Source: Candidatus Zhuqueibacterota bacterium 4484_87
GTDB taxonomy: Bacteria; Zhuqueibacterota; Zhuqueibacteria; Thermofontimicrobiales; Thermofontimicrobiaceae
DNA: 43,123 nucleotides
Assembly: GCA_002085355.1 (NCBI GenBank)
Contig: NATN01000001.1
Location: forward strand, 9,628 to 52,750
Direction of reading: 5' to 3'
Position numbers and translations under genes: made by a program. Shown here one piece after another: positions 2,010 to 39,038 of this stretch (its first letter is position 1; the number at the start of each line of letters is the position of its first letter). Below the pieces are notes generated by a model, which saw only the letters and a program-made list of their open reading frames with translations, did not search any database and was not told the origin of the DNA.

Positions 2010-3147
<1,138 letters not shown>

Positions 3148-9209: not shown

Positions 9210-9368
9210 TCACTTGTTGAAAAATGGAATATCCCGGAACATAATTTATTTTCATTAGTTTTTTGTTCGCAAATAAAATTTCATTAATTGTTGCTGATAA
9301 AATATACAGAAAAATATCAAAAAAAATTAGCGCATTCACCTTTGGCGAGATAAAATAAAAATACAAAA

Positions 9369-10343
9369 ATGCAAGCAACAGCAATCGCTCACGCAAATAT
9401 CGCATTGGTAAAGTATTGGGGGAAACGGGACGTTCGGCTCAATTTACCGGCCGTTGGCTCGATTTCTGTGACGCTCAAAAATCTGTTCACGCGGACAAAA
9501 ATCATCTTTGATCCGAATTTTGATAAAGATGAATTAATAATTGATTCTGTGAAAGTCGAAGGGAAAGCCGGTAGCCGCGTTGCTCATTTTTTGTCCTTAT
9601 TTCGTCAGCGTGCACAGGTGGATTTTTTTGCTCATGTAGAAAGCGAAAACAATTTTCCCACCGGAGCGGGCCTGGCGTCTTCTGCATCGGGATTTGCGGC
9701 GCTAACAATTGCGGCAAATGCGGCGTTGAAATTAAATCTCTCGTCAAAGGAATTGTCCATTTTCGCGCGACAAGGATCGGGCTCGGCAGCACGTTCGGTT
9801 TTTGGTGGTTTTGTGGAAATGAAAAAAGGCGAAAAAAGGGACGGTTCTGACTCTTTTGCCGTAAAGCTGGCAGACGAAACTCACTGGGATTTGCACATGC
9901 TCATTGCCATCACGTCGGAAAAAGCAAAAAAAATGGGTTCTACTGACGGAATGGTCTTATCAGAAAAGACGTCACCGTATTACAGCGAATGGGTACGGAC
10001 GTCAGAAATTGATCTCACTGTCTGCCGTGAAGCGATTTTGAATAAAGATTTTTCACAATTAGCGGAAGTCGCCGAGTACAGTTGTCTCAAAATGCACGCG
10101 CTGGCAATGAGCTCGCAGCCGGGACTGATTTATTGGAACGGCGCGACGGTAGAGGTGCTTCACACAATTCGTGAACTGCGCAGGCAAGGTATTCCTGTTT
10201 TTTTTACAATTGACGCGGGCCCGCAGGTCAAAGCTATCTGCGAGCCGAAATATATTGAAACTGTTAAAAAAAATCTCGAGGAAATAAAAGGCGTCAAAAG
10301 GGTAATTCATACACCTTTAGGACCAGACGCGAAAATTATTTAA
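9369..10343 (+). CDS. mvaD: Diphosphomevalonate (mevalonate-5-diphosphate) decarboxylase
   Basis: The 324-aa product has the N-terminal signature AHANIALVKYWGKRD. It also has the GHMP motif FPTGAGLASSASGFAAL and GSGSAARS. Confidence 0.9.
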   Translation: MQATAIAHANIALVKYWGKRDVRLNLPAVGSISVTLKNLFTRTKIIFDPNFDKDELIIDSVKVEGKAGSRVAHFLSLFRQRAQVDFFAHVESENNFPTGAGLASSASGFAALTIAANAALKLNLSSKELSIFARQGSGSAARSVFGGFVEMKKGEKRDGSDSFAVKLADETHWDLHMLIAITSEKAKKMGSTDGMVLSEKTSPYYSEWVRTSEIDLTVCREAILNKDFSQLAEVAEYSCLKMHALAMSSQPGLIYWNGATVEVLHTIRELRRQGIPVFFTIDAGPQVKAICEPKYIETVKKNLEEIKGVKRVIHTPLGPDAKII

Positions 10344-10352
10344 GGAAAGAGG

Positions 10353-11456
10353 ATGAAAATTGTAGCCAAAGTTCCGGGGAAATTAATTCTTCTCGGAGAA
10401 TATGCTGTTTTGGAAGGTGGTTCATCTCTGGTGATGACTGTTGATCGATTTGCCAGAGTGGAAATCTCGTTTTCTGATCAAATGACTTTTACATTGCAAG
10501 CGCCATCTATCGGCATACGCAATTTGCAATTTTCTCTGGATAAGAGAGGGAAAATTCAGTTCCTATCTGAACTCTCTCCGCGGGTGGAGAAAAAACTCAA
10601 ATTCTTCATTTCTATTTTTGAATTTGGGTTTCGGCTTTTGAAAAAAAGCGCCAAAACATTGCCTCATTCAGAGATTTTGTTGGACACAGACGCATTTTTT
10701 CATAAAAATCGTTCTATTAAATTGGGGCTTGGCTCAAGCGCTGCACTGACTGTCGCTTTAGTCGCAGGTCTAATCGCCGGGTCGGGGCAGTCAGTGATTG
10801 AAAATGATCAGCTTTTCCGCGCAGCAATGCAGGCACACCGTGCAGCACAAGGAAACGTCGGCAGCGGGATTGACATTGCTGCTTCGATTTTTGGCGGCAT
10901 TTTGTCTTATCAAATTGATCCTCACGCAGAGAATTTGAATCCGCAGATCAAACAGCTTAAGATGCCGTCAAATTTATTCATGGTGCCAGTCTGGGTCGGC
11001 AAATGCTCTTCCACCAGCCAGTTCGTGAAATTATTTTATGATTTTAAAAATAAAGACAAACGGAAGTTTGCCAAATTGGTTACCGAAATGAAATTTGTTG
11101 CAGATGCCGGGAAACAGGCTTTTCGCAAGCAGGATATTTCTGGCTTTTTGGATAGCATCAACCAATATAATTTATTGATGAAGAAATTGGGCGAGGATAT
11201 CAATGCGCCAATTGTATCCGAAGAACATTTGCGCATGGCTAATTTGGCTTCGGAAATAGGTGTTGCTTATAAGCCCTCCGGCGCTGGCGGCGGAGATATT
11301 GGTCTTTGTTTTGCAGACTCGGAAGAAAAATTTTCTGATTTAAAAAAGGCAAGCAAAGCAGCGGGTTTTGAACCGCTTGATCTCAATTTTGAATCTTCTG
11401 GAATTCACATAAAATCAATCAAGGTGGAAGCAAGTGAAAACGTCGCGTATTCCTGA
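10353..11456 (+). CDS. mvaK2: Phosphomevalonate kinase (GHMP family, ERG8/MvaK2 type)
   Basis: The 367-aa product has N-terminal PGKLILLGEYAVLEGG, the GHMP motif KLGLGSSAALTVALVAG and a C-terminal KPSGAGGGDIG. It sits between mvaD and the HMGR-mevalonate kinase gene. Confidence 0.72.
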   Translation: MKIVAKVPGKLILLGEYAVLEGGSSLVMTVDRFARVEISFSDQMTFTLQAPSIGIRNLQFSLDKRGKIQFLSELSPRVEKKLKFFISIFEFGFRLLKKSAKTLPHSEILLDTDAFFHKNRSIKLGLGSSAALTVALVAGLIAGSGQSVIENDQLFRAAMQAHRAAQGNVGSGIDIAASIFGGILSYQIDPHAENLNPQIKQLKMPSNLFMVPVWVGKCSSTSQFVKLFYDFKNKDKRKFAKLVTEMKFVADAGKQAFRKQDISGFLDSINQYNLLMKKLGEDINAPIVSEEHLRMANLASEIGVAYKPSGAGGGDIGLCFADSEEKFSDLKKASKAAGFEPLDLNFESSGIHIKSIKVEASENVAYS

Positions 11457-13671
11457 TTTTTATCAATATTCAGTGACCGAGCGTCTTAAATTACTGAAAA
11501 AATACGGAATTCTTGATGATGATGAAGTGCGGGCTCTGGTGAATGGCAAGTATTGCATGAAACCGGATGAAGCTGATAAGATGATAGAGAATGTTGTCGG
11601 TGTCTTCAGTCTGCCCATGGGCTTGGGACTGAATTTTCTCATTAATGGCAAAGAATATATCGTTCCAATGGTCGTTGAAGAGCCATCGATTGTTGCTGCC
11701 GTCAGTTCAGCGGCAAAATTGGTGCGACAGGCAGGCGGTTTTGTGAGTAAAAGCACAGAACCGATTTTGATAGGCCAGATCCAGGTTGTTGAAATGGATA
11801 GTCCGGTGAAAGCTAAACAGTCAATCCTGCGGCAGAAAGAAGAAATTCTCAACCTGGCGAATGATCTGCATCCAAATTTGGTCGCGCGGGGTGGCGGTGC
11901 CCGAGACATCGAAGTCATTTTGCACTCAGCAACTTCCAGATTCGGTGAAATGTTGGTCGTTCATCTGCTGGTGGACACGCGCGATGCCATGGGCGCAAAT
12001 CTCGTGAATAGCATGTGCGAAGGGGTGGCGTCGCTCATTGAAAAAATTACTCGCGGAAAGGTTTTTTTGCGTATCCTCTCCAATTTAGCGGATCGCTCTT
12101 TAGTGCGGGCAAAGGCGGTGATTCGTCCAAAATTGCTGGCAGGGAACGGCTATTCTGGTGAAGAGGTGCGAGAAGGAATTATTCTGGCGAATCATTTCGC
12201 TGCGGTTGATCCTTATCGCGCTGCTACGCACAACAAAGGCATCATGAATGGCATTGATCCGGTTGCCATTGCCACAGGGAATGATTGGCGGGCTATTGAA
12301 TCCGGAGCTCACGCTTACGCCGCACGCGGTACTTCGTACACTTCTCTTACAAATTGGTTCAAAGATGACAAGGGGAATTTAGTTGGCACGATTGAAATTC
12401 CCATCAAAGTCGGTACAGTTGGCGGTCCGCTTCAGTCAAACCCAGCAGTGCAAATTGCCCATCGGATTTTAGGAATTGAATCCGCAAATGAGTTGGCAGA
12501 AGTTATGGGGGCAGTCGGCTTGGCGCAAAATTTTGCTGCATTGCGCGCGCTGGTTACCGAAGGTATTCAGCGCGGCCACATGACATTGCACGCTCGCAGC
12601 GTGGTCAAGGCTGCCAGCGTTCCAGAATATTTATTTGATGAAGTGGTAAATCGCGTTGTTGAAAGCGGAAATATTAAAATTTGGAAGGCGAAAGAGATTT
12701 GCGCTGAATTGGAGGGGAAAATAGGCAATAAAGTGTCGCTCGAAAAAAAGCAGCCATTACCTTCTGGTTACGGAAAGGTGATTTTGCTCGGTGAGCATGC
12801 GGTAGTTTATGGTAGTCATGCAATTGCTGCGCCGATTCCGCTCGCTATTCAGGCAAGAGTAGAAGATGCTGATGAAGGAATTTCTCTCATCATCCCACAA
12901 TGGGGAGTTGAGGAAAAAATTCAGCAGGGGAAGGATTACAGATATTCCATCTATAGATCCCTTCAGATGTTGCTGGAAACTCTGGATCTAATGGGACGCA
13001 ACATGCAACTGTTTTTGTTTCCACACATTCCGCGCGCCATGGGACTTGGCGGCTCCGCAGCGCTGGCAGTGGCGATCATTCGCGCACTTTCAGAACATTT
13101 CAGATTAGATTTGTCAGATGAAGAAGTGAATAAATTAGCCTACGAATCGGAAAAGATTGTTCACGGTACACCTTCCGGAATTGACAATACGATGGCTACT
13201 TACGGGAAATTTATTTTGTACCAAAAAAACACGCCTCCGAAATTACAGGAAATCAAAGTTCAAAAACCTTTACCCTTAGTCATTGGAATGAGCGGCGTTG
13301 AAGGTCTGACCCTGAAAATGGTACGTCAGGTACGTCAGGGCTGGGAAAAGAACCGCGTTTTGTACGATCAGATTTTCGATCAGATCGATGAAATAACCCA
13401 ACAGGCAGTCGAGGCGATCCAGACGTACGATTTGGAAAAATTAGGCTATTTGATGAATATCAACCAAGGCTTGCTCAACGCCATTCAGGTTTCCACTTGG
13501 GAATTGGAAGAATTAGTAGAAATCGCCCGTAAAAACGGCGCCCTGGGCGCAAAACTCACCGGCGGTGGTGGCGGCGGTGCAATTATTGCTCTCTGTCCGG
13601 AAAATGCGGAGCAGGTTGTGGATGCCATGCAGCGAGCCGGGTATAAGGCGATTGTGACGGAGGTGGGGTAA
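11434..13671 (+). CDS. Bifunctional fusion: class II (NAD(P)H, 'degradative-type') HMG-CoA reductase (aa 1 to about 425) fused to mevalonate kinase (aa about 444-745)
   Basis: The N-terminal domain is collinear with Pseudomonas mevalonii-type HMGR (PMVVEEPSIVAA, DTRDAMGANLVN, AATHNKGIMNGIDPVAIATGNDWRA.E.GAHAYA, EGIQRGHMTLHAR). A linker follows (KIGNKVSLEKKQPLPS). The remainder is a complete GHMP mevalonate kinase (GYGKVILLGEHAVVYG, MGLGGSAALAVAIIRAL, GTPSGIDN, KLTGGGGGGAIIAL). The start is GTG with AAGGTGGA upstream, overlapping the PMK stop by 23 nt. Confidence 0.85.
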   Translation: MKTSRIPDFYQYSVTERLKLLKKYGILDDDEVRALVNGKYCMKPDEADKMIENVVGVFSLPMGLGLNFLINGKEYIVPMVVEEPSIVAAVSSAAKLVRQAGGFVSKSTEPILIGQIQVVEMDSPVKAKQSILRQKEEILNLANDLHPNLVARGGGARDIEVILHSATSRFGEMLVVHLLVDTRDAMGANLVNSMCEGVASLIEKITRGKVFLRILSNLADRSLVRAKAVIRPKLLAGNGYSGEEVREGIILANHFAAVDPYRAATHNKGIMNGIDPVAIATGNDWRAIESGAHAYAARGTSYTSLTNWFKDDKGNLVGTIEIPIKVGTVGGPLQSNPAVQIAHRILGIESANELAEVMGAVGLAQNFAALRALVTEGIQRGHMTLHARSVVKAASVPEYLFDEVVNRVVESGNIKIWKAKEICAELEGKIGNKVSLEKKQPLPSGYGKVILLGEHAVVYGSHAIAAPIPLAIQARVEDADEGISLIIPQWGVEEKIQQGKDYRYSIYRSLQMLLETLDLMGRNMQLFLFPHIPRAMGLGGSAALAVAIIRALSEHFRLDLSDEEVNKLAYESEKIVHGTPSGIDNTMATYGKFILYQKNTPPKLQEIKVQKPLPLVIGMSGVEGLTLKMVRQVRQGWEKNRVLYDQIFDQIDEITQQAVEAIQTYDLEKLGYLMNINQGLLNAIQVSTWELEELVEIARKNGALGAKLTGGGGGGAIIALCPENAEQVVDAMQRAGYKAIVTEVG

Positions 13672-13728: not shown

Positions 13729-14694
13729 ATGGAAGAAGTAAAGTTACAAAAAAGAATTATTGGTATCAGTGACATTTTTTTATTGATATCCATTTTTTTG
13801 ATAGCACTGCTAATTTCCTGCGATCAAACGACTGCCCCGGTGTCCAATGATGAATTTATCGTAAAAGAATTCAATTTAATAAATCTCAATTTTAGAGATT
13901 TACCTTATGTAAGCTACTCTCCTAAGTATTTAGACCTTAACTATAAAACAGATAGTGCTGGTGTGCAGATATTTTACTATAACGGTAAATATTATTATCA
14001 CCCCGTTCAATTAGCTCAATGGATTATCATGTTTGTTGATAGTTATTATCTTGTAAAGAATGAAGAACATTTAAAAAAAGCAAAGTTGTTTACAGATAAG
14101 CTCATAGAGATTTCAACATTTGAAAAAGAAGCATTATTTTTTCCATATAATTTTGATTTTCCGTTGCATGGAAAGAGGGATCAGATGATGTTAGCTCCAT
14201 GGTATTCCTGCATGGCTCAAGGTCAGATCTTGTCTGCATTTGTTCGTCTTTACCGAGTTACTTCGATCGAAGCCTATTTAGCATATGCTAGAAAAATTTT
14301 TAGGAGTTTTACTGTTTTAAAAAATAATAACGAAATTTGGGTGAGTATGGTTGATGAAAATAAATATTTATGGTTTGAAGAATATCCAATGAATGATGAG
14401 CCTAATCATACTTTAAATGGATTTATTTTTGCGATTTACGGTCTATATGAATATTATTGGGTAACCAAAAGCACAGAATGCAAAAAATATCTTTTTGCAG
14501 CACTTGCCACTATTGAAGAGTACATAGATGATTTTCGTAATCCAGGGGATATAAGCTATTATTGTTTAAAACATAAAGAAAAAAACCGCGAATATCACAA
14601 AGTGCATACTGAACAATTAGAGTTTTTGTACAAATTTACAAAATATGAATATTTTAAATACATGCATGATTTATTTTATCTTGATTACCATTAG
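13729..14694 (+). CDS. Predicted lipoprotein with a D-glucuronyl C5-epimerase-like C-terminal domain
   Basis: The 321-aa product has a signal peptide with lipobox LLISC. The segments YYHPVQLAQW, LAPWYSCMAQGQILSAFVRLY and HTLNGFIFAIYGLYEYY match, from memory, signature blocks of the glucuronyl C5-epimerase C-terminal family (PF06662-like). Confidence 0.55.
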   Translation: MEEVKLQKRIIGISDIFLLISIFLIALLISCDQTTAPVSNDEFIVKEFNLINLNFRDLPYVSYSPKYLDLNYKTDSAGVQIFYYNGKYYYHPVQLAQWIIMFVDSYYLVKNEEHLKKAKLFTDKLIEISTFEKEALFFPYNFDFPLHGKRDQMMLAPWYSCMAQGQILSAFVRLYRVTSIEAYLAYARKIFRSFTVLKNNNEIWVSMVDENKYLWFEEYPMNDEPNHTLNGFIFAIYGLYEYYWVTKSTECKKYLFAALATIEEYIDDFRNPGDISYYCLKHKEKNREYHKVHTEQLEFLYKFTKYEYFKYMHDLFYLDYH

Positions 14695-14775: not shown

Positions 14776-15897
14776 TTAATTGCTTTTTCTCAAAAAATAT
14801 GTTTTTTCATTTGGCTTAAGTGAAATCATTCCGTTTTGATTGTCAAATTTTAGTGTTTTTGGATTTGAGTATCCTTGAGAAAGTTCAATGTTCTTGTTTA
14901 TCCAATTTTTCGGCACGTCGAACAAAACGGTTAATTCTTGATCATAATAACTGTTGTCAAGACCATCGGATAAAGTAATTTGAATTTCTTCAATTTCATT
15001 TTCGCAATTAAATTTAGCCCTTGCAATAGGAGCCACTTGTTGTCTCTCTTTAATGTAAAGCGTAATGTTGTCCATCGTTGCGTTCCAAAAATCGCGCTGC
15101 GTAATTGCCTCTAAATCTGCAACAAATTCATCCCAATCGTAATATCCCCAACCGTCGGGATACCCAATATTGTGATAGGTTAAAATAATCCAGGCATGTT
15201 TTTCTATTGCGCCGTCGAGAATGGGCACTAAATCGGTATTATCATTTACGCACTCGGCGCAGTCGCGAAAGTCGTAAGCCTCCATCACCAGCGACGGTAA
15301 TTCATACCAGTTCATTGCATCTTCTTCTCCGTCGGGAAGGATGTACGGGTTTACGGTGTCAAACCGGGAATGAAAACGGCCATTTAGAAAACCAACATTT
15401 TTCAAGGCGCGGTGCGTTTCTTCCTCAAATCCAAATCCGCCGGGATAAGCAAATGACACAGGTTTGAGCCCATATTTCATCATTATGTCCCATGTGAGTT
15501 TAATGGAGGTATAAGCCGAATCATAAGTTAGTTCATCATGATTGACGTGCTCATAACCATGCCCGAAATATCCGAAACCCAATGGAATTAGATAATCCTC
15601 AAAATAATCACGCATGTATGGTCTGTCTTCATAGTTCTTAGCCACTATTTCAAAGTCCATTCTTAAGCCATATTCCACAACTTTGTCCGTTACTTTTTTT
15701 TCTCTGTCAATGTACGGAGATCCAGTATCATAATTTAGTGTAATCGCTGCCGTATGATTCTCATACCATTTGGCAACTGATACTTCAAATTTGGATTCGT
15801 AAGGGGCGGTAATATTTTCTTTATTATCGCAATGAAAAGCAAGTGTTACCATAATAATGATGATAAAGAGACAGGGAAATTTGTTTTTGAATTTCAT
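14776..15897 (-). CDS. Predicted lipoprotein, polysaccharide deacetylase (NodB/CE4)-like
   Basis: The 373-aa product has the lipobox LAFHC. CE4-like motif order is present: AITLNYDTG (in place of TFDDG), GHGYEHVNH (HxxxH), FAYPGG and ILTYHNI. The C-terminal part is a beta-rich domain. Confidence 0.5.
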   Translation of the reverse strand: MKFKNKFPCLFIIIIMVTLAFHCDNKENITAPYESKFEVSVAKWYENHTAAITLNYDTGSPYIDREKKVTDKVVEYGLRMDFEIVAKNYEDRPYMRDYFEDYLIPLGFGYFGHGYEHVNHDELTYDSAYTSIKLTWDIMMKYGLKPVSFAYPGGFGFEEETHRALKNVGFLNGRFHSRFDTVNPYILPDGEEDAMNWYELPSLVMEAYDFRDCAECVNDNTDLVPILDGAIEKHAWIILTYHNIGYPDGWGYYDWDEFVADLEAITQRDFWNATMDNITLYIKERQQVAPIARAKFNCENEIEEIQITLSDGLDNSYYDQELTVLFDVPKNWINKNIELSQGYSNPKTLKFDNQNGMISLKPNEKTYFLRKSN

Positions 15898-28720: not shown

Positions 28721-29731
28721 CTACTTTTTTTTCTTGCCATTTTCTTCGAGCGATTTTTTCATTTTTTCAAGGTCTTGTTTTACTTTTTCCCGTTTTCGCC
28801 TGATGGCTTCTAACTTTCTTCGCTCTTCTTCGTCTTTTTTGCGCTTTAATTTCGCGCTTTTATCAAAATATTTATAAACAGAAAAACGATGAGTGATGCC
28901 GGCACGTACCTGCCATTTGTAGTATTCTTTGTGGAAAATATCCGTTTCCTTCAGCGAATCGTATTGAGTCAGAGCAAAGTCAAAACTGATGTCGATGACA
29001 TTGTCCCACGGTCCCAGAAAACGAATGCCCTGGCTGATTCTGGACGAATTTTGGTTAAATGGCAAATCTTTTTTATTGAAAAAGATTTCCCCACTGTATT
29101 CAGTGTAGAATTGAACTGATCGAATGGGAAATTTAAATCCGGCACCTATGAACAATTGGTCTATTTCAGACGTGAAATAGGTGTCAGTGACGTCATGATC
29201 CATGTAGCCGAAGTTTAAGTTAATTTTCAACGGATGTCGCGGCATCATTTTCAAAAAGTCCAGCGTGATGATGCCTCTTGCACTCCAGGCAGCTTTATTA
29301 GTGAAAAACGTTTCAAACGGGACATTGCCTTTGCTGGCAGTTGGAATGATGAAACTCCCTGCCAATCCAAATTTAAAAAAGTCTGTTCGCAAGGGCGTTA
29401 AATATTTAATCCCAAGGAGAGTATTGCCGCGCATTCCCCAGAGATGTTCCTGATCGTCCTGATAGGGGATCCAGTTAAGATATGTTTCCAGATAGTGCGC
29501 CAATCCAAAAGTAGCGCTTAAATTTGAGCGATAGTATTTTGCCAGACTTGCTTTGCTTGCCTGTTTCATGTAGGTGGAAACATTCCATTGAACAATGATG
29601 TCCGCTGGCTTAACCGGATCTGCTGATAGCACCCGAAGCATTCCTTTTCCCCCGGTGAGACCAATTTGGCTGTGAACGATAGAATTGAATCCGAACAATA
29701 GAACCAGAATGAATAAGGGAAATTTTCTCAT
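28721..29731 (-). CDS. Putative outer-membrane beta-barrel protein with a highly charged C-terminal helical tail
   Basis: The 336-aa product has a signal peptide (FILVLLFGFNSIVHSQ). Alternating hydrophobic/aromatic strand patterns end in HRFSVYKYF. A K/E/R-rich extension of about 47 aa follows (KLKRKKDEEERRKLEAIRRKREKVKQDLEKMKKSLEENGKKKK). Confidence 0.5.
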   Translation of the reverse strand: MRKFPLFILVLLFGFNSIVHSQIGLTGGKGMLRVLSADPVKPADIIVQWNVSTYMKQASKASLAKYYRSNLSATFGLAHYLETYLNWIPYQDDQEHLWGMRGNTLLGIKYLTPLRTDFFKFGLAGSFIIPTASKGNVPFETFFTNKAAWSARGIITLDFLKMMPRHPLKINLNFGYMDHDVTDTYFTSEIDQLFIGAGFKFPIRSVQFYTEYSGEIFFNKKDLPFNQNSSRISQGIRFLGPWDNVIDISFDFALTQYDSLKETDIFHKEYYKWQVRAGITHRFSVYKYFDKSAKLKRKKDEEERRKLEAIRRKREKVKQDLEKMKKSLEENGKKKK

Positions 29732-32118: not shown

Positions 32119-33429
32119 ATGATGAAAAAAACAAAGACGATTTTTATTCTGGTTTTAGCTGCTTTGCTGCTGGTGGTGTCGATGAGTATTGCACAGCAGT
32201 TAAAGAAGCATGGGCGCTATTACATTGCTGATATTGAAAAAGAATTTAAAGTAGCCCCAGGTGGCATACTGGAAATTAAAGATGTCCGCGGCGATGTGCA
32301 AATTACCAGTTGGAGCAAAAATGTTGTTTACATTCACGAGCGCAGAAAAATGGATGTGTACACCAAGGAAGAAGCCGAAGCTGTACTTAAAGACCAAAAA
32401 TATCAGTATCAGAAAATCGGAAATAAAATTGTTGTGGGCATGAAAGGTAGCTATCGTTCATACATGAGCAGCTATTTTGATGTCAAATTGCCGAAAAAAT
32501 TCAATGCGACAGTGAGTACCGCGGGTGGTGATTTGAGAGTTTCCGATTTGGAAGGAGAGGTCAAGTTAGTGACTTCGGGCGGCGATATTGATGTGAGCAA
32601 AATTGATGGCATTGTAAAAGCCACAACATCTGGCGGAGATATCTCGGCTAATAAAATATCGAAAGAAGCTATCCTTACCACTTCCGGCGGTGATATTGAC
32701 ATGGATGATATCAAAGGAGATGTCAAAGCTGCGACTGCCGGTGGAGATCTTTCGCTGCGGGAAATAGCCGGGAATGTTCGCGCTTCAACTTCTGGCGGAG
32801 ATATCATCGTGGAGAAGAATACGGGCAATGTCTCGGTTCAAACATCAGGTGGAGATATTGAGTTATACGATGTCGGCGCTCAGGTGAAAGCAACCACTTC
32901 TGGCGGCGATGTCGTCGTGCGTCGTAGCAGCGGAGATGTGAAGGTCGTGACTTCTGGTGGTGATATCGATCTGACAGATATTCAAGGGAAAATAAGCGCT
33001 ACGACTTCCGGCGGAGATATTGAAGCGACAACGGTAATGAAGGGCATTAAAGTTACCACTGCCGGAGGAAATATTGAGCTGGTGGATATTCGCGGCTTTA
33101 TCGACGCGAAAACTTCCGGCGGGGATATGAAAGCAGAATTGACTTTGCAGGATTTTTCTAAAGATCATCATGTGACAATGAACACAGCCAGTGGTGATAT
33201 TGAGTTGAGAATTCCTGCCCAATTACCGGCGACAATAAAAGCCCGTTTGAAAGTTACCCCCCGGGCACGCGATGATTACGACATTATTTCTGACTTTCCT
33301 ATTTCAATTAAAAAGGAAAAAGAAGGGAGAAATGAAATCATCTCAGCGACAGGAGAAATTAATGGCGGCGGTGATGTGATTGAGTTGAAAACGACTAACG
33401 GGAATATTTCAATTATTAAAGCGAAATAG
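32119..33429 (+). CDS. Secreted DUF4097-like ('putative adhesin') repeat protein, predicted beta-helix
   Basis: The 436-aa product has a signal peptide (IFILVLAALLLVVSMSIAQ). It contains about 11 consecutive 18-aa units T(S/A)GGD(I/L)x(5-6)G.V.. (e.g. TSGGDIDVSKIDGIVKAT, TSGGDIELYDVGAQVKAT). These correspond to a 54-nt coding periodicity over about 32518-33140. Confidence 0.75.
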   Translation: MMKKTKTIFILVLAALLLVVSMSIAQQLKKHGRYYIADIEKEFKVAPGGILEIKDVRGDVQITSWSKNVVYIHERRKMDVYTKEEAEAVLKDQKYQYQKIGNKIVVGMKGSYRSYMSSYFDVKLPKKFNATVSTAGGDLRVSDLEGEVKLVTSGGDIDVSKIDGIVKATTSGGDISANKISKEAILTTSGGDIDMDDIKGDVKAATAGGDLSLREIAGNVRASTSGGDIIVEKNTGNVSVQTSGGDIELYDVGAQVKATTSGGDVVVRRSSGDVKVVTSGGDIDLTDIQGKISATTSGGDIEATTVMKGIKVTTAGGNIELVDIRGFIDAKTSGGDMKAELTLQDFSKDHHVTMNTASGDIELRIPAQLPATIKARLKVTPRARDDYDIISDFPISIKKEKEGRNEIISATGEINGGGDVIELKTTNGNISIIKAK

Positions 33430-33487: not shown

Positions 33488-36400
33488 TTATTTTTTCGCC
33501 AACCGTTTCTCGCGAAATTTTTCTGAGCGATTCTCCATGATGATGTAAATTACCGGAACGACAAATAGCGTGAGAAAAGTTGCCACGAATAAACCGCCGA
33601 TTACAGACCTTGCCAGCGGGGCCCAGTTTTCTCCGCTCTCGCCCAAACCTAATGCTAACGGAACCATTGCCAGTATTGTCGTCAACGCAGTCATCAGCAC
33701 TGGTCTCATTCTCGTTTCTCCGCCTTCCTGGACTGCTTCCATCAAACTTTTTCCTTTGGCGCGGAGCTGATTCATGTAATCGACGAGCACAATTCCGTTG
33801 TTCACCACGATACCGACTAACATAATAATTCCGATCAGTGCCATCACCGTGAGCGTAGTTCCGGTGAGGAACAAGAAAAGTGCCACGCCGATGAGGGACA
33901 TGGGAATGGTGAACAAAATGATGAACGGATCCAACAGAGACTCGAACTGCGAAGCCATAACCATATAAGTGAGCAAAATAGCAACCAACATGGCAATGCC
34001 CAAATACATGAACGATTCCTGCTGTTCTTCAGCCATACCACTGATTTCGAGCCGATAATCATTGGGGATAACTACTTTTTTCATGGCTTTTTGCACATCG
34101 AGAGTAACGCTGCGCAAATCTCTGCCCGAAACCATCATGGAAACTTTAACCACGCGTTCCTGGTCTTCGCGAGTGATTTCTGTCGGAGCTTTGCTGGTTA
34201 CTACGCGCGCTACGGATCGAAGCGGCACTCGCGCACCTGTCGGCGATACGATCAAAATATTTTCCAGGTCTGCCTTGGATTTGCGATATTTTTTATCCAG
34301 TTGGACACGAATGTCGTATTCTTCACCGCCTTCGCGAAAAGTGGAAGCAACTGTACCCAGAATATTTGAGCTTACTGTCTGCGAAACCGCTGCTGCTGAA
34401 ATTCCCAGATCAGCCAGACGATTTCTGTCCAGTTCTATTCTCAGCTCTGGCATGGCTTCTTCAAGACTGATTTTCACTTGTTCGGTACCGGGAATCTGTT
34501 TTACCAGATCTTGAATTTGTTCGGCTAATTCTTTTGATTTTGTCAAATCGTGCCCGAAAATTTCCACGACGATGTCGCCTTCGCCGAACATCTGACTGAT
34601 TCCCTGTTCCTGATAGCGAATTTCTGCGCCGGGGATTTCGGCAAATTTCTTTTTAAGAGCCGCATCAATCTCTTTTTGAGAGCGATGACGCTGGCTTTTG
34701 CGGACTAATTTTACATTGACTTCGCCTGCGTTTGAGGCGCCACCACCGAAGAGAGCCGTGAGACCTTCGCCCTGACCAAATTGTACGTGAATATTTTCTG
34801 CTTCCGGCACTTCTTTTTTGACAACGTCAGCAATTTTCATCATTGTTTTTTGCATTTCATCGAGACTGGTTCCGGGGGCAGTTTTTACCTGATAGACGAT
34901 AAATCCCTGATCGGAATGGGGGAAAAAATCACCGCCACGGGTTGCCAGAATCGCAATGGAAGTTGCAAAAAGCAAAGTGACCAAAATGAGCACAGTTTTT
35001 CTGTGGTTGATTGACCATCTCAGAGCTCTGCTGTATTGATTTCTTAATCCGATCAGAAAGGAAGTAATTCCTTTTTTTATGCGGCTGATAAACCCTTTGG
35101 ATGATCTATCTCGTGATTTAATTTTTTCACTAATGTCCAGAAATCGCGATGCCAGAAGCGGCACTAATGTGAGTGCGACAAATAACGAGGACAAAAGAGA
35201 AAAACAGATGGTAACAACCATGTCGTTGAACAACTCGCCGGCAATGCCAGGGACAAAAAGCACGGGCACAAAAACTGCTAATGTTGTCAATGTAGAGGCA
35301 GTGATTGCCATAGAGACTTCCGAGCCTCCCTTGTCAGCAGCATCTTCCATAGAATCACCCAATTGCCGCCGCCGGAATATATTTTCCAATACAACAATGG
35401 AGTTATCCACCAACATTCCCACTGCCAGTGCCAAACCAGCCATGGAAATCATATTCAGCGTCAAACCGGCCTGATCCATGACTGCAAAAGTGACCAACAT
35501 GGAAACCGGAATGGAAATGGCAACAATGAGCGAACTGCGGAAATTTAGCAAGAAAAATAACAGCACAAGAAACGCCAAACCGATAGCTTGCAATGCGGTG
35601 CTTCCCAGATTTGACATGGATCGCTGAATGAAGGTCGCCTGATCCCAGAAGTTGATAATCTCCACACCTCTGGGAATGGCTTGCTGAATATCATCCAATT
35701 GGCTTTTTATGCGCTTGACGACTTGCACAGTGTTCGCGTCCGATTGCTTGCTGACCATGAGCAGAACGCTTGGGTTACCGTCAATGTATTCGCGTTGTCT
35801 CTGTTCTTTGAAACCATCCACTACGCGTGCCACATCGCGAATTCTAACAGGTGTCCCCTGAATTGTGGCAATGGTTGTGTTTTTGATTTCATCTAAATTC
35901 TGATATTCCCCCATGGTTTGAACAGTGTATTCCTGCTCTTTATTTTCAATCCAGCCGCTGGGAATCTGCATGTTGTTCATTCGCAGTGCGTTCACAAGAT
36001 AATCAATGGAAAAATGATGCGCCTGCAAGCGATGGGGATCTGCGAGAATTTTAATTTCGCGGGATAAGCCTCCGGCAGTGAAAGCATTTGCCACGCCCGG
36101 AATACGTTCAATTCGCGGCTCGATCTCCCGTTCTGAAATTCTGCGCAATTCTGCAGTGCCGTATTGGCTTGATTGAACAGCCATGTACATGATTGGCTGC
36201 ATGGAAGGATCAAAAGCGAATACTACCGGATCTCTGATGTCATCAGGCAAATAGTCACGGATGAAGTCGATGTTTTTCCGCGTATCAATTTCCGCCTGAT
36301 CCATATCAGTACCCCAGTCAAATTCAAGCAACACCAGGGAAAGTCCCTGTTTGGAAGTGGAGCTGACTTTTTTAACGTTCTCCACAGAAGATACAATTTC

Positions 36401-36604
36401 TTCGAGAGGACGAGTTACAGAATTTTCAATATCGTAGGGATTGACTCCTGTGTATTGGGTGATGATCGCGATCACCGGAAAAGTTAAATCCGGGAACAGG
36501 TCTATTTTCAATCTTGCCAGAGAAAAGAGACCAAACCCGATCACAATCAAATATATCATGAAAAACGTGATGCCGCGTTTGATGGCTAATGTCGTGATTT
36601 TCAT
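33488..36604 (-). CDS. RND-family efflux transporter, inner-membrane permease (AcrB/HAE-type)
   Basis: The 1038-aa product has 12-TM RND topology with two large periplasmic loops. Typical N-terminus is present (AIKRGITFFMIYLIVIGFGLFS...LFPD..FPVI.I.T.Y.G), as is the TM4 region GLALAVGMLVDNSIVVLENI. Confidence 0.95.
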   Translation of the reverse strand: MKITTLAIKRGITFFMIYLIVIGFGLFSLARLKIDLFPDLTFPVIAIITQYTGVNPYDIENSVTRPLEEIVSSVENVKKVSSTSKQGLSLVLLEFDWGTDMDQAEIDTRKNIDFIRDYLPDDIRDPVVFAFDPSMQPIMYMAVQSSQYGTAELRRISEREIEPRIERIPGVANAFTAGGLSREIKILADPHRLQAHHFSIDYLVNALRMNNMQIPSGWIENKEQEYTVQTMGEYQNLDEIKNTTIATIQGTPVRIRDVARVVDGFKEQRQREYIDGNPSVLLMVSKQSDANTVQVVKRIKSQLDDIQQAIPRGVEIINFWDQATFIQRSMSNLGSTALQAIGLAFLVLLFFLLNFRSSLIVAISIPVSMLVTFAVMDQAGLTLNMISMAGLALAVGMLVDNSIVVLENIFRRRQLGDSMEDAADKGGSEVSMAITASTLTTLAVFVPVLFVPGIAGELFNDMVVTICFSLLSSLFVALTLVPLLASRFLDISEKIKSRDRSSKGFISRIKKGITSFLIGLRNQYSRALRWSINHRKTVLILVTLLFATSIAILATRGGDFFPHSDQGFIVYQVKTAPGTSLDEMQKTMMKIADVVKKEVPEAENIHVQFGQGEGLTALFGGGASNAGEVNVKLVRKSQRHRSQKEIDAALKKKFAEIPGAEIRYQEQGISQMFGEGDIVVEIFGHDLTKSKELAEQIQDLVKQIPGTEQVKISLEEAMPELRIELDRNRLADLGISAAAVSQTVSSNILGTVASTFREGGEEYDIRVQLDKKYRKSKADLENILIVSPTGARVPLRSVARVVTSKAPTEITREDQERVVKVSMMVSGRDLRSVTLDVQKAMKKVVIPNDYRLEISGMAEEQQESFMYLGIAMLVAILLTYMVMASQFESLLDPFIILFTIPMSLIGVALFLFLTGTTLTVMALIGIIMLVGIVVNNGIVLVDYMNQLRAKGKSLMEAVQEGGETRMRPVLMTALTTILAMVPLALGLGESGENWAPLARSVIGGLFVATFLTLFVVPVIYIIMENRSEKFREKRLAKK

Positions 36605-36605
36605 C

Positions 36606-39038
36606 TCAATTGTCTCCTTCGTTCAAAACCCTTACTCTTGAACCATCTTTTAAACTTTGCTGTCCAACGACTACGATTTGTTCTCCTTCTTCAAGCCCGG
36701 ATTTTACGACGGAAACCGTGCCATTGGTGTAGCTAATTTCTAATTTGCGCAAGTGAGCCACGCTATCCTGCACAACAAACACGTGGGAATTTACCACCGT
36801 CATATCTTCGCCATTGACGCGCTGCAATTCAGTTTTTTCAATCACTGCAAATTTAGGAATCGCGATGACATCTTTCAGCGTCTGAATGGAAATCTGCACT
36901 TCAGCGAACATGCCGGGTTTCAACTTTTTATCTTTGTTGTCCACGAGAATCTCAATCTTTCCCATGCGCGTCAGCGGGTCGAGAACCGGGCTAATTTTGA
37001 TAATTTTTCCCCAAAAAGTCTCGTCCGGATAGCTGCGAACTTTGACGACGCCGGATTGCCCGATTTTCAATTGGCCAAAATCTTGCTCAGGTGCTTTCAC
37101 AATCACCTTCACTCGATTCATCTGAACAACGGTTACAATGGGCATGGGACCCGTTGCCATGTCGCCCGCTTCATAATTGCGCGTACCAATAATGCCGGAA
37201 ATGGGCGCTGTAATGATTGCGTCTTTTAATTGACTTTCTGCCTGTATGAGCGCCGCTTCTGCCTGTTCAACCAAAGCTTTTGTCGCTTCAAATTGAGTTT
37301 TTGCTGCGTCGAATTGTTGTTCGCTGATTGCATTTTCCGCTTTTAATCTTTTGGCGCGCTCAAATTCAGCTTTCATATTAGCGAATTGCGCCCGTGCGCT
37401 TGCCAGACCAGCTTTTGCCTGAACTACGGCCTGTTCAATTTTTGTCGCTTCAATTTTCGCAATCACATCGCCTTTTCTTACATAGTCGCCTTCATCAACT
37501 TCAAATTTGACGATGCGATCAGGAATCTTGGAGAACACTTTCACTTCTATTTCCGCCTGAATGTCGCCGGTGTAAGTAACTTCTCTGGAAACATCTTTGC
37601 GAACTACCGGCATTGTTTGCACCGGAATGATCAGCGCATCTTCGTTCGATTTTGCTTTTTTGCCACAGCCTGTCAGTAAAAGTGAGTTCACATAATTCAT
37701 TCTCGCCTGCGTCAGAGCTAATTGAGAATTTAGTACGTCCAATTGTGTGTTTATTCCTTCTTTGTACATCATATTCGCCAAACGCAAAGCTTCTTTTGCC
37801 AGATCCACGGTCTTGACCGCAGACTGATATTTTTCCCTGGCTTCCTGCAGTTTATTGTACGCCACTTCAACTTCTGCAGCGATGCCGTCGCTGGCTTGTT
37901 TTTCAGTGTCCAACATGATGTGATAATCCAGCCGAGATTTCTGATATTGCGCTGCTGATTGGAAACCGTGGAACAGAGGAATTTGCAAACTGATCGCAGA
38001 TGTGAAACCTTTGCTGGCATTTTTATGGCTGAATTTGTAATTATTTCTCATGTCCATGAATGAATAGTCAGTTTGAAAAAATATTTTTGGGAGAAAATTA
38101 CTTCGGGCAATGGCAACTGTTTTACGCATTATCCGCTTTTGATCCTGGATCGCCAGAAACATCGGTCTTTTTTCCATGGCTAATTTCTGCAACTCTTCCA
38201 GGGGCATGTTGCAAAATTCATCTTCCACATATTTGAACTCGCCTTCCACATCGATGACAGCATCTCTTTCCAGACCGAGAATTGTCTTGAGCATGGTCAG
38301 CGCAGATCGATAGTTGTTTCTGGCAGCGATCACCGCTGGTCTCAAATTCGCGACATCCACCTCGGCGCGCATTTTGTCAAAACCGGATGCAGCGCCTGAT
38401 TCATATTTTTTTCTGACATTTTCGAAATTCGCTTCTGCCTGAGCCAATGCTTCTTCCTGAACTTTGACAAGTTCTTTCGTCAACAAGCATCCGTAAAATG
38501 CATTGGTTGTGTTGTAAATCAAGTCCTGTTTTTTCTCCATGAGATTCTTTTTTGCCGCCGATTTCGCAGCATTGGCAATTTGAATTCCGGAAATTCCAGC
38601 GCCTCCCAAGAATAATGGTTGTGTCAATGTGGCGCCATAACGGAGCGTATTTTCCAACCCAAAAGACATGCGCACATAATCAGGCATGTCTTCCAGCCCC
38701 GGAATGTACGGGCCCAGCGGCGCTAACATCGGTTTCAAAAAGTTGGGTATGGTTTGTTCCTGGATGCTCCAGGCATGTTGGAAATTGATCGAGCCGTCCA
38801 ATTTAGGCAAAATGTTCGACCAAGCTTCCACAACACCGGTTTTAGCTTTTGCGACTTCTTTTTCCGCCATTTGAATTGCCGGATTTTTCTGCAATGCCAG
38901 TTCCACGCTTCGGTCAAGAGTGAGCGTCACCTTTTTTTGCGAGAACCCAGTTAACGGCGAAAATAACAGCAGAAAAAATAAAATCAACTGTAATGTCCGC
39001 AGAATTTCTGTTGTTAAATTTTTCATATTTTCCCTCAC
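36606..39038 (-). CDS. Single ORF fusing a TolC-like outer-membrane factor (aa 1 to about 452) to an RND periplasmic adaptor/membrane-fusion protein (aa about 458-810)
   Basis: The N-terminal half is OMF-like: signal peptide, LTLDRSVELALQKNPAIQMAEKEV, and two repeat halves ending DVLNSQLALTQARMNYVNS. The sequence continues directly into LLLTGCGKKAKSNED (the tail of a lipoprotein signal peptide plus lipobox Cys, codon 37665-37667). An MFP follows (lipoyl-like VKFEVDEGDYVRKGDVIAKIE, coiled-coil hairpin, ITAPISGIIG, beta-barrel domains). No stop codon separates the two halves. Confidence 0.8.
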   Translation of the reverse strand: MRENMKNLTTEILRTLQLILFFLLLFSPLTGFSQKKVTLTLDRSVELALQKNPAIQMAEKEVAKAKTGVVEAWSNILPKLDGSINFQHAWSIQEQTIPNFLKPMLAPLGPYIPGLEDMPDYVRMSFGLENTLRYGATLTQPLFLGGAGISGIQIANAAKSAAKKNLMEKKQDLIYNTTNAFYGCLLTKELVKVQEEALAQAEANFENVRKKYESGAASGFDKMRAEVDVANLRPAVIAARNNYRSALTMLKTILGLERDAVIDVEGEFKYVEDEFCNMPLEELQKLAMEKRPMFLAIQDQKRIMRKTVAIARSNFLPKIFFQTDYSFMDMRNNYKFSHKNASKGFTSAISLQIPLFHGFQSAAQYQKSRLDYHIMLDTEKQASDGIAAEVEVAYNKLQEAREKYQSAVKTVDLAKEALRLANMMYKEGINTQLDVLNSQLALTQARMNYVNSLLLTGCGKKAKSNEDALIIPVQTMPVVRKDVSREVTYTGDIQAEIEVKVFSKIPDRIVKFEVDEGDYVRKGDVIAKIEATKIEQAVVQAKAGLASARAQFANMKAEFERAKRLKAENAISEQQFDAAKTQFEATKALVEQAEAALIQAESQLKDAIITAPISGIIGTRNYEAGDMATGPMPIVTVVQMNRVKVIVKAPEQDFGQLKIGQSGVVKVRSYPDETFWGKIIKISPVLDPLTRMGKIEILVDNKDKKLKPGMFAEVQISIQTLKDVIAIPKFAVIEKTELQRVNGEDMTVVNSHVFVVQDSVAHLRKLEISYTNGTVSVVKSGLEEGEQIVVVGQQSLKDGSRVRVLNEGDN

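Follow-up and report, generated by a model that had tools for sequence, protein, structure and literature searches.

Can one bacterial polypeptide carry two consecutive steps of the mevalonate pathway, and what would be gained by joining them? The question is raised by an open reading frame (ORF) on contig NATN01000001.1 of Candidatus Zhuqueibacterota bacterium 4484_87, of which a stretch of 43,123 nucleotides was analyzed (hereafter the window, to whose first letter coordinates refer unless another locus is named). The ORF lies at 11434..13671 on the forward (+) strand, starts with GTG, appears as a single ORF in the ORF listing and encodes 745 aa. An earlier note on this DNA had read it as a fusion of a class II 3-hydroxy-3-methylglutaryl-coenzyme A (HMG-CoA) reductase (HMGR) and a mevalonate kinase (MK), a single polypeptide for consecutive pathway steps, and the domain scores, catalytic residues, predicted folds and frame conservation described below uphold that reading. 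We consider it very probable that 11434..13671 encodes a genuine bifunctional biosynthetic enzyme, HMGR::MK, with an N-terminal class II HMGR and a C-terminal mevalonate kinase; that both activities reside in one polypeptide we infer from its sequence.

Two Enzyme Domains in One Reading Frame

The reductase domain occupies residues 1-428 (11434..12717, +), C-terminal flap helices included, and matches the Pfam family HMG-CoA_red (PF00368) over residues 14-387 (E 1.5e-114, 383 bits against a cut-off of 27) as well as the NCBIfam model TIGR00532 over residues 1-387 (453.7 bits, cut-off 260). The kinase domain, residues 445-745 (12766..13668, +), carries GHMP_kinases_N (PF00288, residues 507-590) and GHMP_kinases_C (PF08544, residues 659-737) and scores 265.5 bits against the mevalonate kinase model TIGR00549 over residues 447-720 (cut-off 163). 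Completeness of the reductase, as claimed before, is borne out by alignment with the HMGR of Pseudomonas mevalonii (1QAX), which covers residues 5-421 of its 428, flap included. The kinase half begins, also as described, at GKVILLGEHAVVYG, and its profile, fold and catalytic residues are complete. Between the two lies the inter-domain linker, residues about 429-444 (12718..12765, +; KIGNKVSLEKKQPLPS). A linker of about 16 aa had been proposed; a short linker is indeed present, and it comes to 15 aa (IGNKVSLEKKQPLPS) when measured between profile ends. Translation of the whole would start behind a Shine-Dalgarno-like AGGTGG (11422..11427, +), seen in the sequence itself 6 nt 5' of the GTG. The fused ORF shares 23 nt with the upstream gene for a phosphomevalonate kinase-like (PMK-like) protein.

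The reductase half is about 57% identical to 1QAX over residues 4-422 in the solved-structure alignment, and the motifs VVEEPSIVAA, HNKGIMNG, ATGNDWRA and GIQRGHMTLHARS are kept. The catalytic residues of class II HMGRs are E83, K267, D283 and H381 in P. mevalonii numbering; the catalytic stretches EEP, HNKG, GNDWR and RGHM are all preserved in the same alignment. Conservation was examined across 22 fused proteins of 33-90% identity. Reductase residues E83, K268 and D284 are invariant among them and H382 is kept in at least 90%, and in the kinase half K448, E454, H455, G539, S541, E573, D584, K707 and G710 are invariant, as is the glycine-rich loop. GHMP motifs I, II and III, which mark GHMP kinases, are all present in this half, as are the catalytic Lys and Asp. 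The best solved relatives of this half are the mevalonate kinases of Leishmania major (2HFS, 1e-52) and Methanosarcina mazei (6MDE).

AlphaFold2, run on the 22-protein alignment, gave a model with a mean predicted local distance difference test score (pLDDT) of 85.8 and a predicted template modeling score (pTM) of 0.56, with pLDDT below 50 at residues 430-439. In Foldseek comparisons the N-terminal half of this model resembles P. mevalonii HMGR chains (TM-score 0.90-0.96) and the C-terminal half resembles the mevalonate kinases 2HFS, 2HFU, 6MDE and 4HAC (TM-score 0.79-0.87), while no PDB chain covering both halves was found in the solved-structure library. The prediction thus describes two well-folded bodies whose relative placement carries no confidence. 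Within its own family neither half is unusual, all of the sequence and fold features tested being found except position 3 of the cofactor motif.

Operon, Cofactor and Reaction Direction

Three closely spaced genes make up the operon, MVD - PMK-like - HMGR::MK, with the fused gene at its end. The operon opens with a gene for diphosphomevalonate decarboxylase (MVD; 9369..10343, +), which scores 312.6 bits against TIGR01240 (cut-off 171) and contains the MVD-like_N and MDD_C domains. The PMK-like GHMP kinase (10353..11456, +) follows 9 nt after MVD, its 152.8 bits against TIGR01220 falling just short of the cut-off of 165.7, and a homologous GHMP kinase stands immediately 5' of the fused gene in most fused loci. 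In the mechanism that we propose, the N-terminal class II HMGR would reduce HMG-CoA to mevalonate, probably with NADPH, the C-terminal kinase would convert mevalonate to mevalonate-5-phosphate, and the upstream PMK-like kinase and MVD would finish the route to isopentenyl diphosphate.

The database name of the protein is "HMG-CoA reductase, degradative." A rule for the cofactor helix of bacterial HMGRs (Miller and Kung, 2018), restated in a 2026 Protein Science paper (PMC13488460), assigns Dx(V/L)xxxL to NADH and (H/Y)xSxxxR to NADPH. The helix of the fused protein reads H146-P-N-L-V-A-R152 (11869..11889, +): its H and R match the NADPH rule, position 3 is N instead of S, and HPNLVAR has none of the residues that the NADH motif calls for. 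Among solved enzymes, the four closest all read D...L, and the NADPH-using enzyme of Streptococcus pneumoniae reads YPSIVKR. Across the fused sequences, 181 of 199 have H at position 1 together with R at position 7, with N, K or R at position 3. All 11 of the unfused HMGRs of the window's phylum begin the motif with Asp, and eight of these match the NADH pattern exactly (for example, DPVLVEL). Together, the cofactor helix and the operon point to an anabolic enzyme that probably uses NADPH.

Alternative Explanations

The fusion could be a product of sequencing or assembly, two genes having been run together when a stop codon went missing or an indel arose in the linker's A-run. The linker DNA does hold a run of seven A, and a disrupted seryl-tRNA synthetase gene on the same contig indicates that local errors or pseudogenes occur. 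The 2,238-nt gene, however, is present with 0 differences and inside the same operon in the ENA assemblies ERZ2433807 and ERZ23491052, whose contigs differ from the window at 2 positions over the 4.3-kb operon, and a genome of the same genus bears the fusion at 90% identity. Among the best 120 relatives from 5.8 billion proteins, 120 of 120 have the same three Pfam domains (64-90% identity, 713-769 aa); about 55 of the 80 best loci in one-genome-per-species collections contain an uninterrupted two-domain ORF; and one reading frame runs through 192 complete junctions, which represent at least eight named phyla and orthologues of 35-90% identity. With an identical gene elsewhere and a conserved frame in homologues, the fusion is independent of this one assembly, and we give an artefact almost no credence. 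A real fused gene might still yield two proteins from one transcript, by an internal translation start before the kinase half or by proteolysis of the linker, which is predicted to be disordered and exposed; at the DNA level, a GGAGGGG string (12711-12717) precedes an in-frame GTG (12733). The 15 nt between them exceeds the usual ribosome-binding distance, the linker is unconserved across clades and thus offers no conserved internal start or cleavage site, and a stop codon, which some relatives use, would be a simpler means to the same end, yet the open frame is kept across 35-90% identity. We therefore regard two separate products as improbable, if the least improbable of the alternatives weighed here.

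Slightly less probable still is that one half is without catalytic activity or serves regulation only, for instance as a kinase-like sensor of mevalonate that controls the reductase; no observation speaks in its favor. The catalytic and nucleotide-binding residues of both halves are invariant or nearly so in the 22 divergent fusions, both halves exceed curated equivalog cut-offs, and no other protein of the operon reaches the mevalonate kinase cut-off, the upstream kinase scoring 80.7 bits against TIGR00549. As for direction, a degradative reductase converting mevalonate to HMG-CoA, like that of P. mevalonii, would agree with the database name, with the best NCBIfam model, which carries the name "degradative," and with the closest solved relative, the catabolic P. 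mevalonii enzyme at about 57% identity. The cofactor helix nonetheless lacks the Asp...Leu of all four D...L-type structures aligned and has His...Arg like the NADPH enzyme of S. pneumoniae. Moreover, the gene is fused to MK and shares its operon with MVD and a PMK-like kinase, whereas in catabolism MK would compete for the same substrate, and no HMG-CoA lyase family match was obtained among the operon genes and flanking ORFs scanned with Pfam. We consider a degradative role very improbable, and an anabolic HMGR::MK the reading to be preferred.

Distribution and Origin of the Fusion

Carriers of the fusion span dozens of species and no fewer than eight named phyla (Calditrichota, Pseudomonadota, Acidobacteriota, Actinomycetota, Balneolota, Ignavibacteriota, Myxococcota and Methylomirabilota). 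Non-proteobacterial carriers of the single ORF comprise Calditrichaceae, a KSB1-labelled protein, Acidobacteriota, Actinomycetota (Nakamurella, Cryobacterium), Balneolaceae, Ignavibacteriaceae, and one metagenome-assembled genome (MAG) each from Myxococcales and Methylomirabilota; proteobacterial carriers comprise many Gammaproteobacteria (Rhodanobacteraceae, Nevskia, Woeseiaceae, Salinisphaera, Pseudomonadales) and Rhodospirillaceae. The nearest named sequences are from Calditrichota MAGs, so the organism probably belongs to that phylum or to one close by. Three carriers are cultured: Cryobacterium psychrotolerans CGMCC 1.5382, Endozoicomonas sp. G2_2 and Litchfieldella qijiaojingensis. Contamination was considered for the last of these and is unlikely, since its HMGR half groups with other gammaproteobacterial fusions.

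Within the window's phylum a fused orthologue was found in 8 of 167 genomes, namely the window's own, a congener (90% identity), one other member of the family (66%) and five genomes from three other families (72-80%). In several close relatives two different genes stand side by side instead, an HMGR at 41-50% identity and an MK at 34-40%, and most of the 167 genomes are without HMGR. Two apparent variants of the architecture were rejected. A 1-kb insertion inside the fused gene in four genomes (L015, L020, L023, L038), suggested by long tblastn spans, proved to be an artefact of matches starting within the upstream PMK-like kinase, the fused ORF itself being intact; a second, long-linker fusion in two genomes (G131, G125), recorded as an 822/828-aa open frame, resolved in the ORF calls into two separate genes.

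Trees were built from 198 HMGR domains (FastTree) and from 104 MK domains (quick IQ-TREE); both were fast searches with a midpoint root and some long-branched rows. One clade of the HMGR tree (support 99) takes in 72 of the 79 fused rows. Four non-fused rows share this clade: three are truncated and retain part of the kinase half (L048, P0128, P0140), and one, of 432 aa, has no kinase match (P0144). The window groups with its congener, then with G003, G006 and G007, and then with Calditrichaceae, and the unfused HMGRs of its phylum lie in a distant clade (support 100). The MK tree recovers the same main clade, with 73 of 76 rows and the same inner groupings; as the two trees agree, the two halves have travelled together. 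Outside the main clade stand smaller fused lineages, comprising an Ignavibacteriaceae group as well as P0135, P0137, P0145 and P0253. If well-supported branches are respected, the label has to change at least six times on the HMGR tree and at least four times on the MK tree. We read this pattern as one old main fusion, spread widely by horizontal transfer, plus a few independent fusions, the count of origins being approximate.

The most likely route to the fusion would be loss of the stop codon between adjacent HMGR and MK genes. Two relatives of the same family and order show a state close to this: in G135 (L090, 4435-6777) and G124 (L091, 3302-5638), one reading frame takes in both genes, with a single TAA between them. 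The HMGR here is a different one, with an NADH-type helix, and ends in a charged low-complexity tail (...EEEKKEREKK). Such an arrangement may be one point mutation away from fusion, or may be a product of fission.

Isoprenoid Routes in Carrier Genomes

The window's genome is a MAG of 2.72 Mb, 73% complete, that encodes the 2-C-methyl-D-erythritol 4-phosphate (MEP) pathway proteins DXS, DXR and IspH on separate contigs (C121, C60 and C184); with 855, 499 and 229 bits, respectively, each of the three clears its cut-off. In the five fusion-bearing genomes tested (G000, which is the window's, and G120, G003, G007 and G129), DXR was found in five and IspH in four, DXS having been checked in the window's genome only. 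Fusion-bearing lineages thus appear to have both the MEP and the mevalonate routes, a combination present in 2.42% of the species surveyed in a 2026 review (PMC13001223). In one fusion-bearing relative (G003), an archaeal-type HMG-CoA synthase (TIGR00748, 506 bits) adjoins an archaeal-type acetyl-CoA acetyltransferase (NF053570, 602 bits) at locus L003 (G003:C100, 210-2517), and a 97%-complete genome of the window's genus has a match equal in size and score to that synthase. Judged by these family matches, the upper half of the pathway in G003 is of an archaeal kind and the lower half is the bacterial fused cassette.

The Linker and a Possible Mevalonate Hand-Over

Across the 192 complete junctions the linker measures 5-63 aa (median 18.5), is enriched in E, A, K and P, with S and T above average and aromatic residues scarce, and differs in sequence between clades without conservation. 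In the window's protein it is predicted to be disordered and exposed. The flap of the reductase closes over the active site, and the kinase would hang from the end of the flap domain on a flexible tether of about 15 residues. The earlier suggestion that the fusion channels mevalonate finds no structural support here: the linker is variable and predicted to be disordered, and the monomer model predicts neither fixed inter-domain packing nor a conserved structured interface or tunnel (linker 5-63 aa, pLDDT < 50, pTM 0.56). A variable linker and a low pTM argue against a fixed tunnel. Tethering is supported by the model; a physical channel is not.

The benefit of the fusion would then lie in a fixed 1:1 expression and co-localization of two steps rather than in a physical tunnel, and such 1:1 co-expression would be convenient for a gene cassette that moves between phyla. 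Equal dosage together with co-localization would be the economical explanation of the fusion. Both parent enzymes, HMGR and mevalonate kinase, form dimers, and proximity effects within an oligomer are possible. A fuller reading is that the PMK-like - HMGR::MK unit, accompanied here by MVD, is a horizontally mobile, NADPH-driven cassette in MEP-running bacteria of at least eight phyla, and that the fusion was selected for direct hand-over of mevalonate by proximity channeling; we advance this only tentatively and think it rather unlikely to hold in full. If it did hold, the cassette would give MEP-pathway bacteria a second, separately controlled supply of isoprenoid precursors, and mevalonate would pass from the flap-covered reductase site to the tethered kinase, with an oligomer of two dimer-forming enzymes preventing the loss of this diffusible intermediate.

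Several observations weigh against the account of a bifunctional biosynthetic enzyme preferred here. The pTM of 0.56 and the disordered linker give no sign of a defined inter-domain interface or channel. With DXS, DXR and IspH in the genome, the mevalonate route may be conditional or may serve a special pool. HMG-CoA synthase was not found in the window's 73%-complete genome, so that a supply of HMG-CoA is shown only in relatives. Finally, where the published NADPH motif has S, at position 3, the window's protein has N and the family as a whole N, K or R, a departure that leaves the NADPH assignment a prediction.

Other Features of the Window

A promoter-like site, TTGAAA-17-CATAAT (9217..9245, +; 10/12 consensus matches), lies in a 159-nt AT-rich gap 5' of the operon; it is weak, and a promoter scan found no more such sites in the region than in shuffles. 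A gene for a D-glucuronyl C5-epimerase-like protein (13729..14694, +; PF06662, 121.8 bits) begins 57 nt past the stop codon of the fused gene and probably stands outside the mevalonate pathway. No terminator-like site was found in the gap between them, the scan giving nothing above chance. In a sibling strain with the identical fused gene (L102, ERZ2433807, 4678-5975), an insertion element with an rve integrase shortens the C5-epimerase-like gene to 123 aa. Flanking the operon are genes for a Na+/H+ antiporter and for polysaccharide synthesis; isoprenoid-consuming genes, such as those for hopanoids, were looked for nearby and none was found.

The seryl-tRNA synthetase gene mentioned above (2010-3147, -) is broken into two ORFs, 218 aa and 202 aa long, that overlap, with a shifted frame. 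By comparison with the E. coli enzyme, it seems to be without about 65 codons between the GQLPKxE and FRxEAG motifs, and may be either a pseudogene or a local assembly collapse. Elsewhere, an 810-aa ORF (36606-39038, -) joins an outer-membrane efflux protein (OEP, two repeats) to an HlyD-type membrane-fusion protein, parts that are usually separate proteins; it lies downstream of a TetR regulator, with an AcrB-family pump (33488-36604) coming directly after it. Three sizeable ORFs have no Pfam match: 14776-15897 (-, 373 aa), 28721-29731 (-, 336 aa) and 32119-33429 (+, 436 aa).

Relation to Known Systems

No paper describing a natural HMGR-MK fusion or its biochemistry was found in full-text literature searches. 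A 2026 review names only MvaE and IspDF as natural fusions of the bacterial isoprenoid pathways, MvaE being the sole HMGR fusion (PMC13001223), which accords with the earlier note, to which no characterized HMGR-MK enzyme was known. The note would have counted its reading refuted had the architecture proved common and already characterized. Common it is, with dozens of species in at least eight phyla; for characterization, no paper was found. The window's protein thus adds a further example to a bifunctional variant of two known enzymes that is widespread and, in the literature searched, undescribed.

Other class II HMGR fusions were seen among 50%-identity cluster representatives. HMGR-MK is extended by a type 1 isopentenyl diphosphate isomerase (IDI) in P0122 and P0125 (TIGR02150, 151 bits), and a 944-aa Woeseiaceae ORF with a C-terminal extension (L049, 5980-8811) groups with P0125 in both trees and may be of the same kind. 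The order is reversed in an MK-HMGR protein (P0141), and PMK-like-HMGR proteins occur as well (P0154, P0171). Further partners are polyprenyl synthase and squalene/phytoene synthase together (P0179, P0184), SQS_PSY with an epimerase (P0178), an epimerase by itself (P0160) and a squalene-hopene-cyclase-like domain (P0165). Class II HMGR is, as these sequences suggest, a frequent fusion partner.

These findings bear on annotation and on pathway engineering. To label carriers only as having a "degradative" reductase is a systematic annotation error, in which the direction of the reductase is probably given wrongly, and since the database name covers the first half only, pathway surveys will score the carriers as being without mevalonate kinase. 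Separate genes, genes parted by one in-frame stop, the fused gene and the trifunctional HMGR-MK-IDI form a natural series useful for studying how and for what reason consecutive enzymes become fused, and also the movement of a pathway cassette among phyla in which the MEP route is already present. A compact, probably NADPH-dependent reductase-kinase with a natural linker is, in addition, a ready-made part for mevalonate-pathway constructs, and cultured carriers exist.

Compared with stand-alone class II HMGRs of solved structure (P. mevalonii 1QAX and 4I4B; Delftia acidovorans 6DIO; Burkholderia cenocepacia 6P7K; S. pneumoniae 5WPJ), the fused protein has the same fold with flap and the same catalytic Glu, Lys, Asp and His, and adds a 300-residue mevalonate kinase at the end of the flap domain. 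In its cofactor helix it departs from the nearest relatives by sequence, which are all of the D...L type, and HPNLVAR instead resembles the YPSIVKR of the S. pneumoniae enzyme. With the stand-alone mevalonate kinases of L. major (2HFS) and M. mazei (6MDE/4HAC) it shares the GHMP fold, the motifs GKxILxGEHxVV, GLGxSAA and KLTGGGGGG, and the catalytic Lys, Glu and Asp, but the fused kinase is without a free N-terminus and begins right after the linker. Mevalonate kinases differ in feedback regulation, being inhibited by prenyl diphosphates, inhibited by diphosphomevalonate or resistant, and the fused kinase may belong to any of these classes.

MvaE of Enterococcus faecalis is likewise a natural bifunctional protein of the mevalonate pathway with a class II HMGR. 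Its partner is an acetoacetyl-CoA thiolase, placed N-terminally and serving a step that is not consecutive, whereas in the window's fusion the partner is the next enzyme and is C-terminal; no thiolase domain was detected in the 745-aa protein with Pfam or NCBIfam, and its reductase begins at residue 1. Closest in gene order are the unfused HMGR-MK pairs of Virgibacillus, Oceanobacillus, Myxococcus, Corallococcus and the window's own phylum, which have the same HMGR-then-MK order in adjacent or overlapping genes. In contrast to the fused gene, these pairs make two polypeptides and fall in different clades of both trees, and those of the window's phylum have the NADH-type helix.

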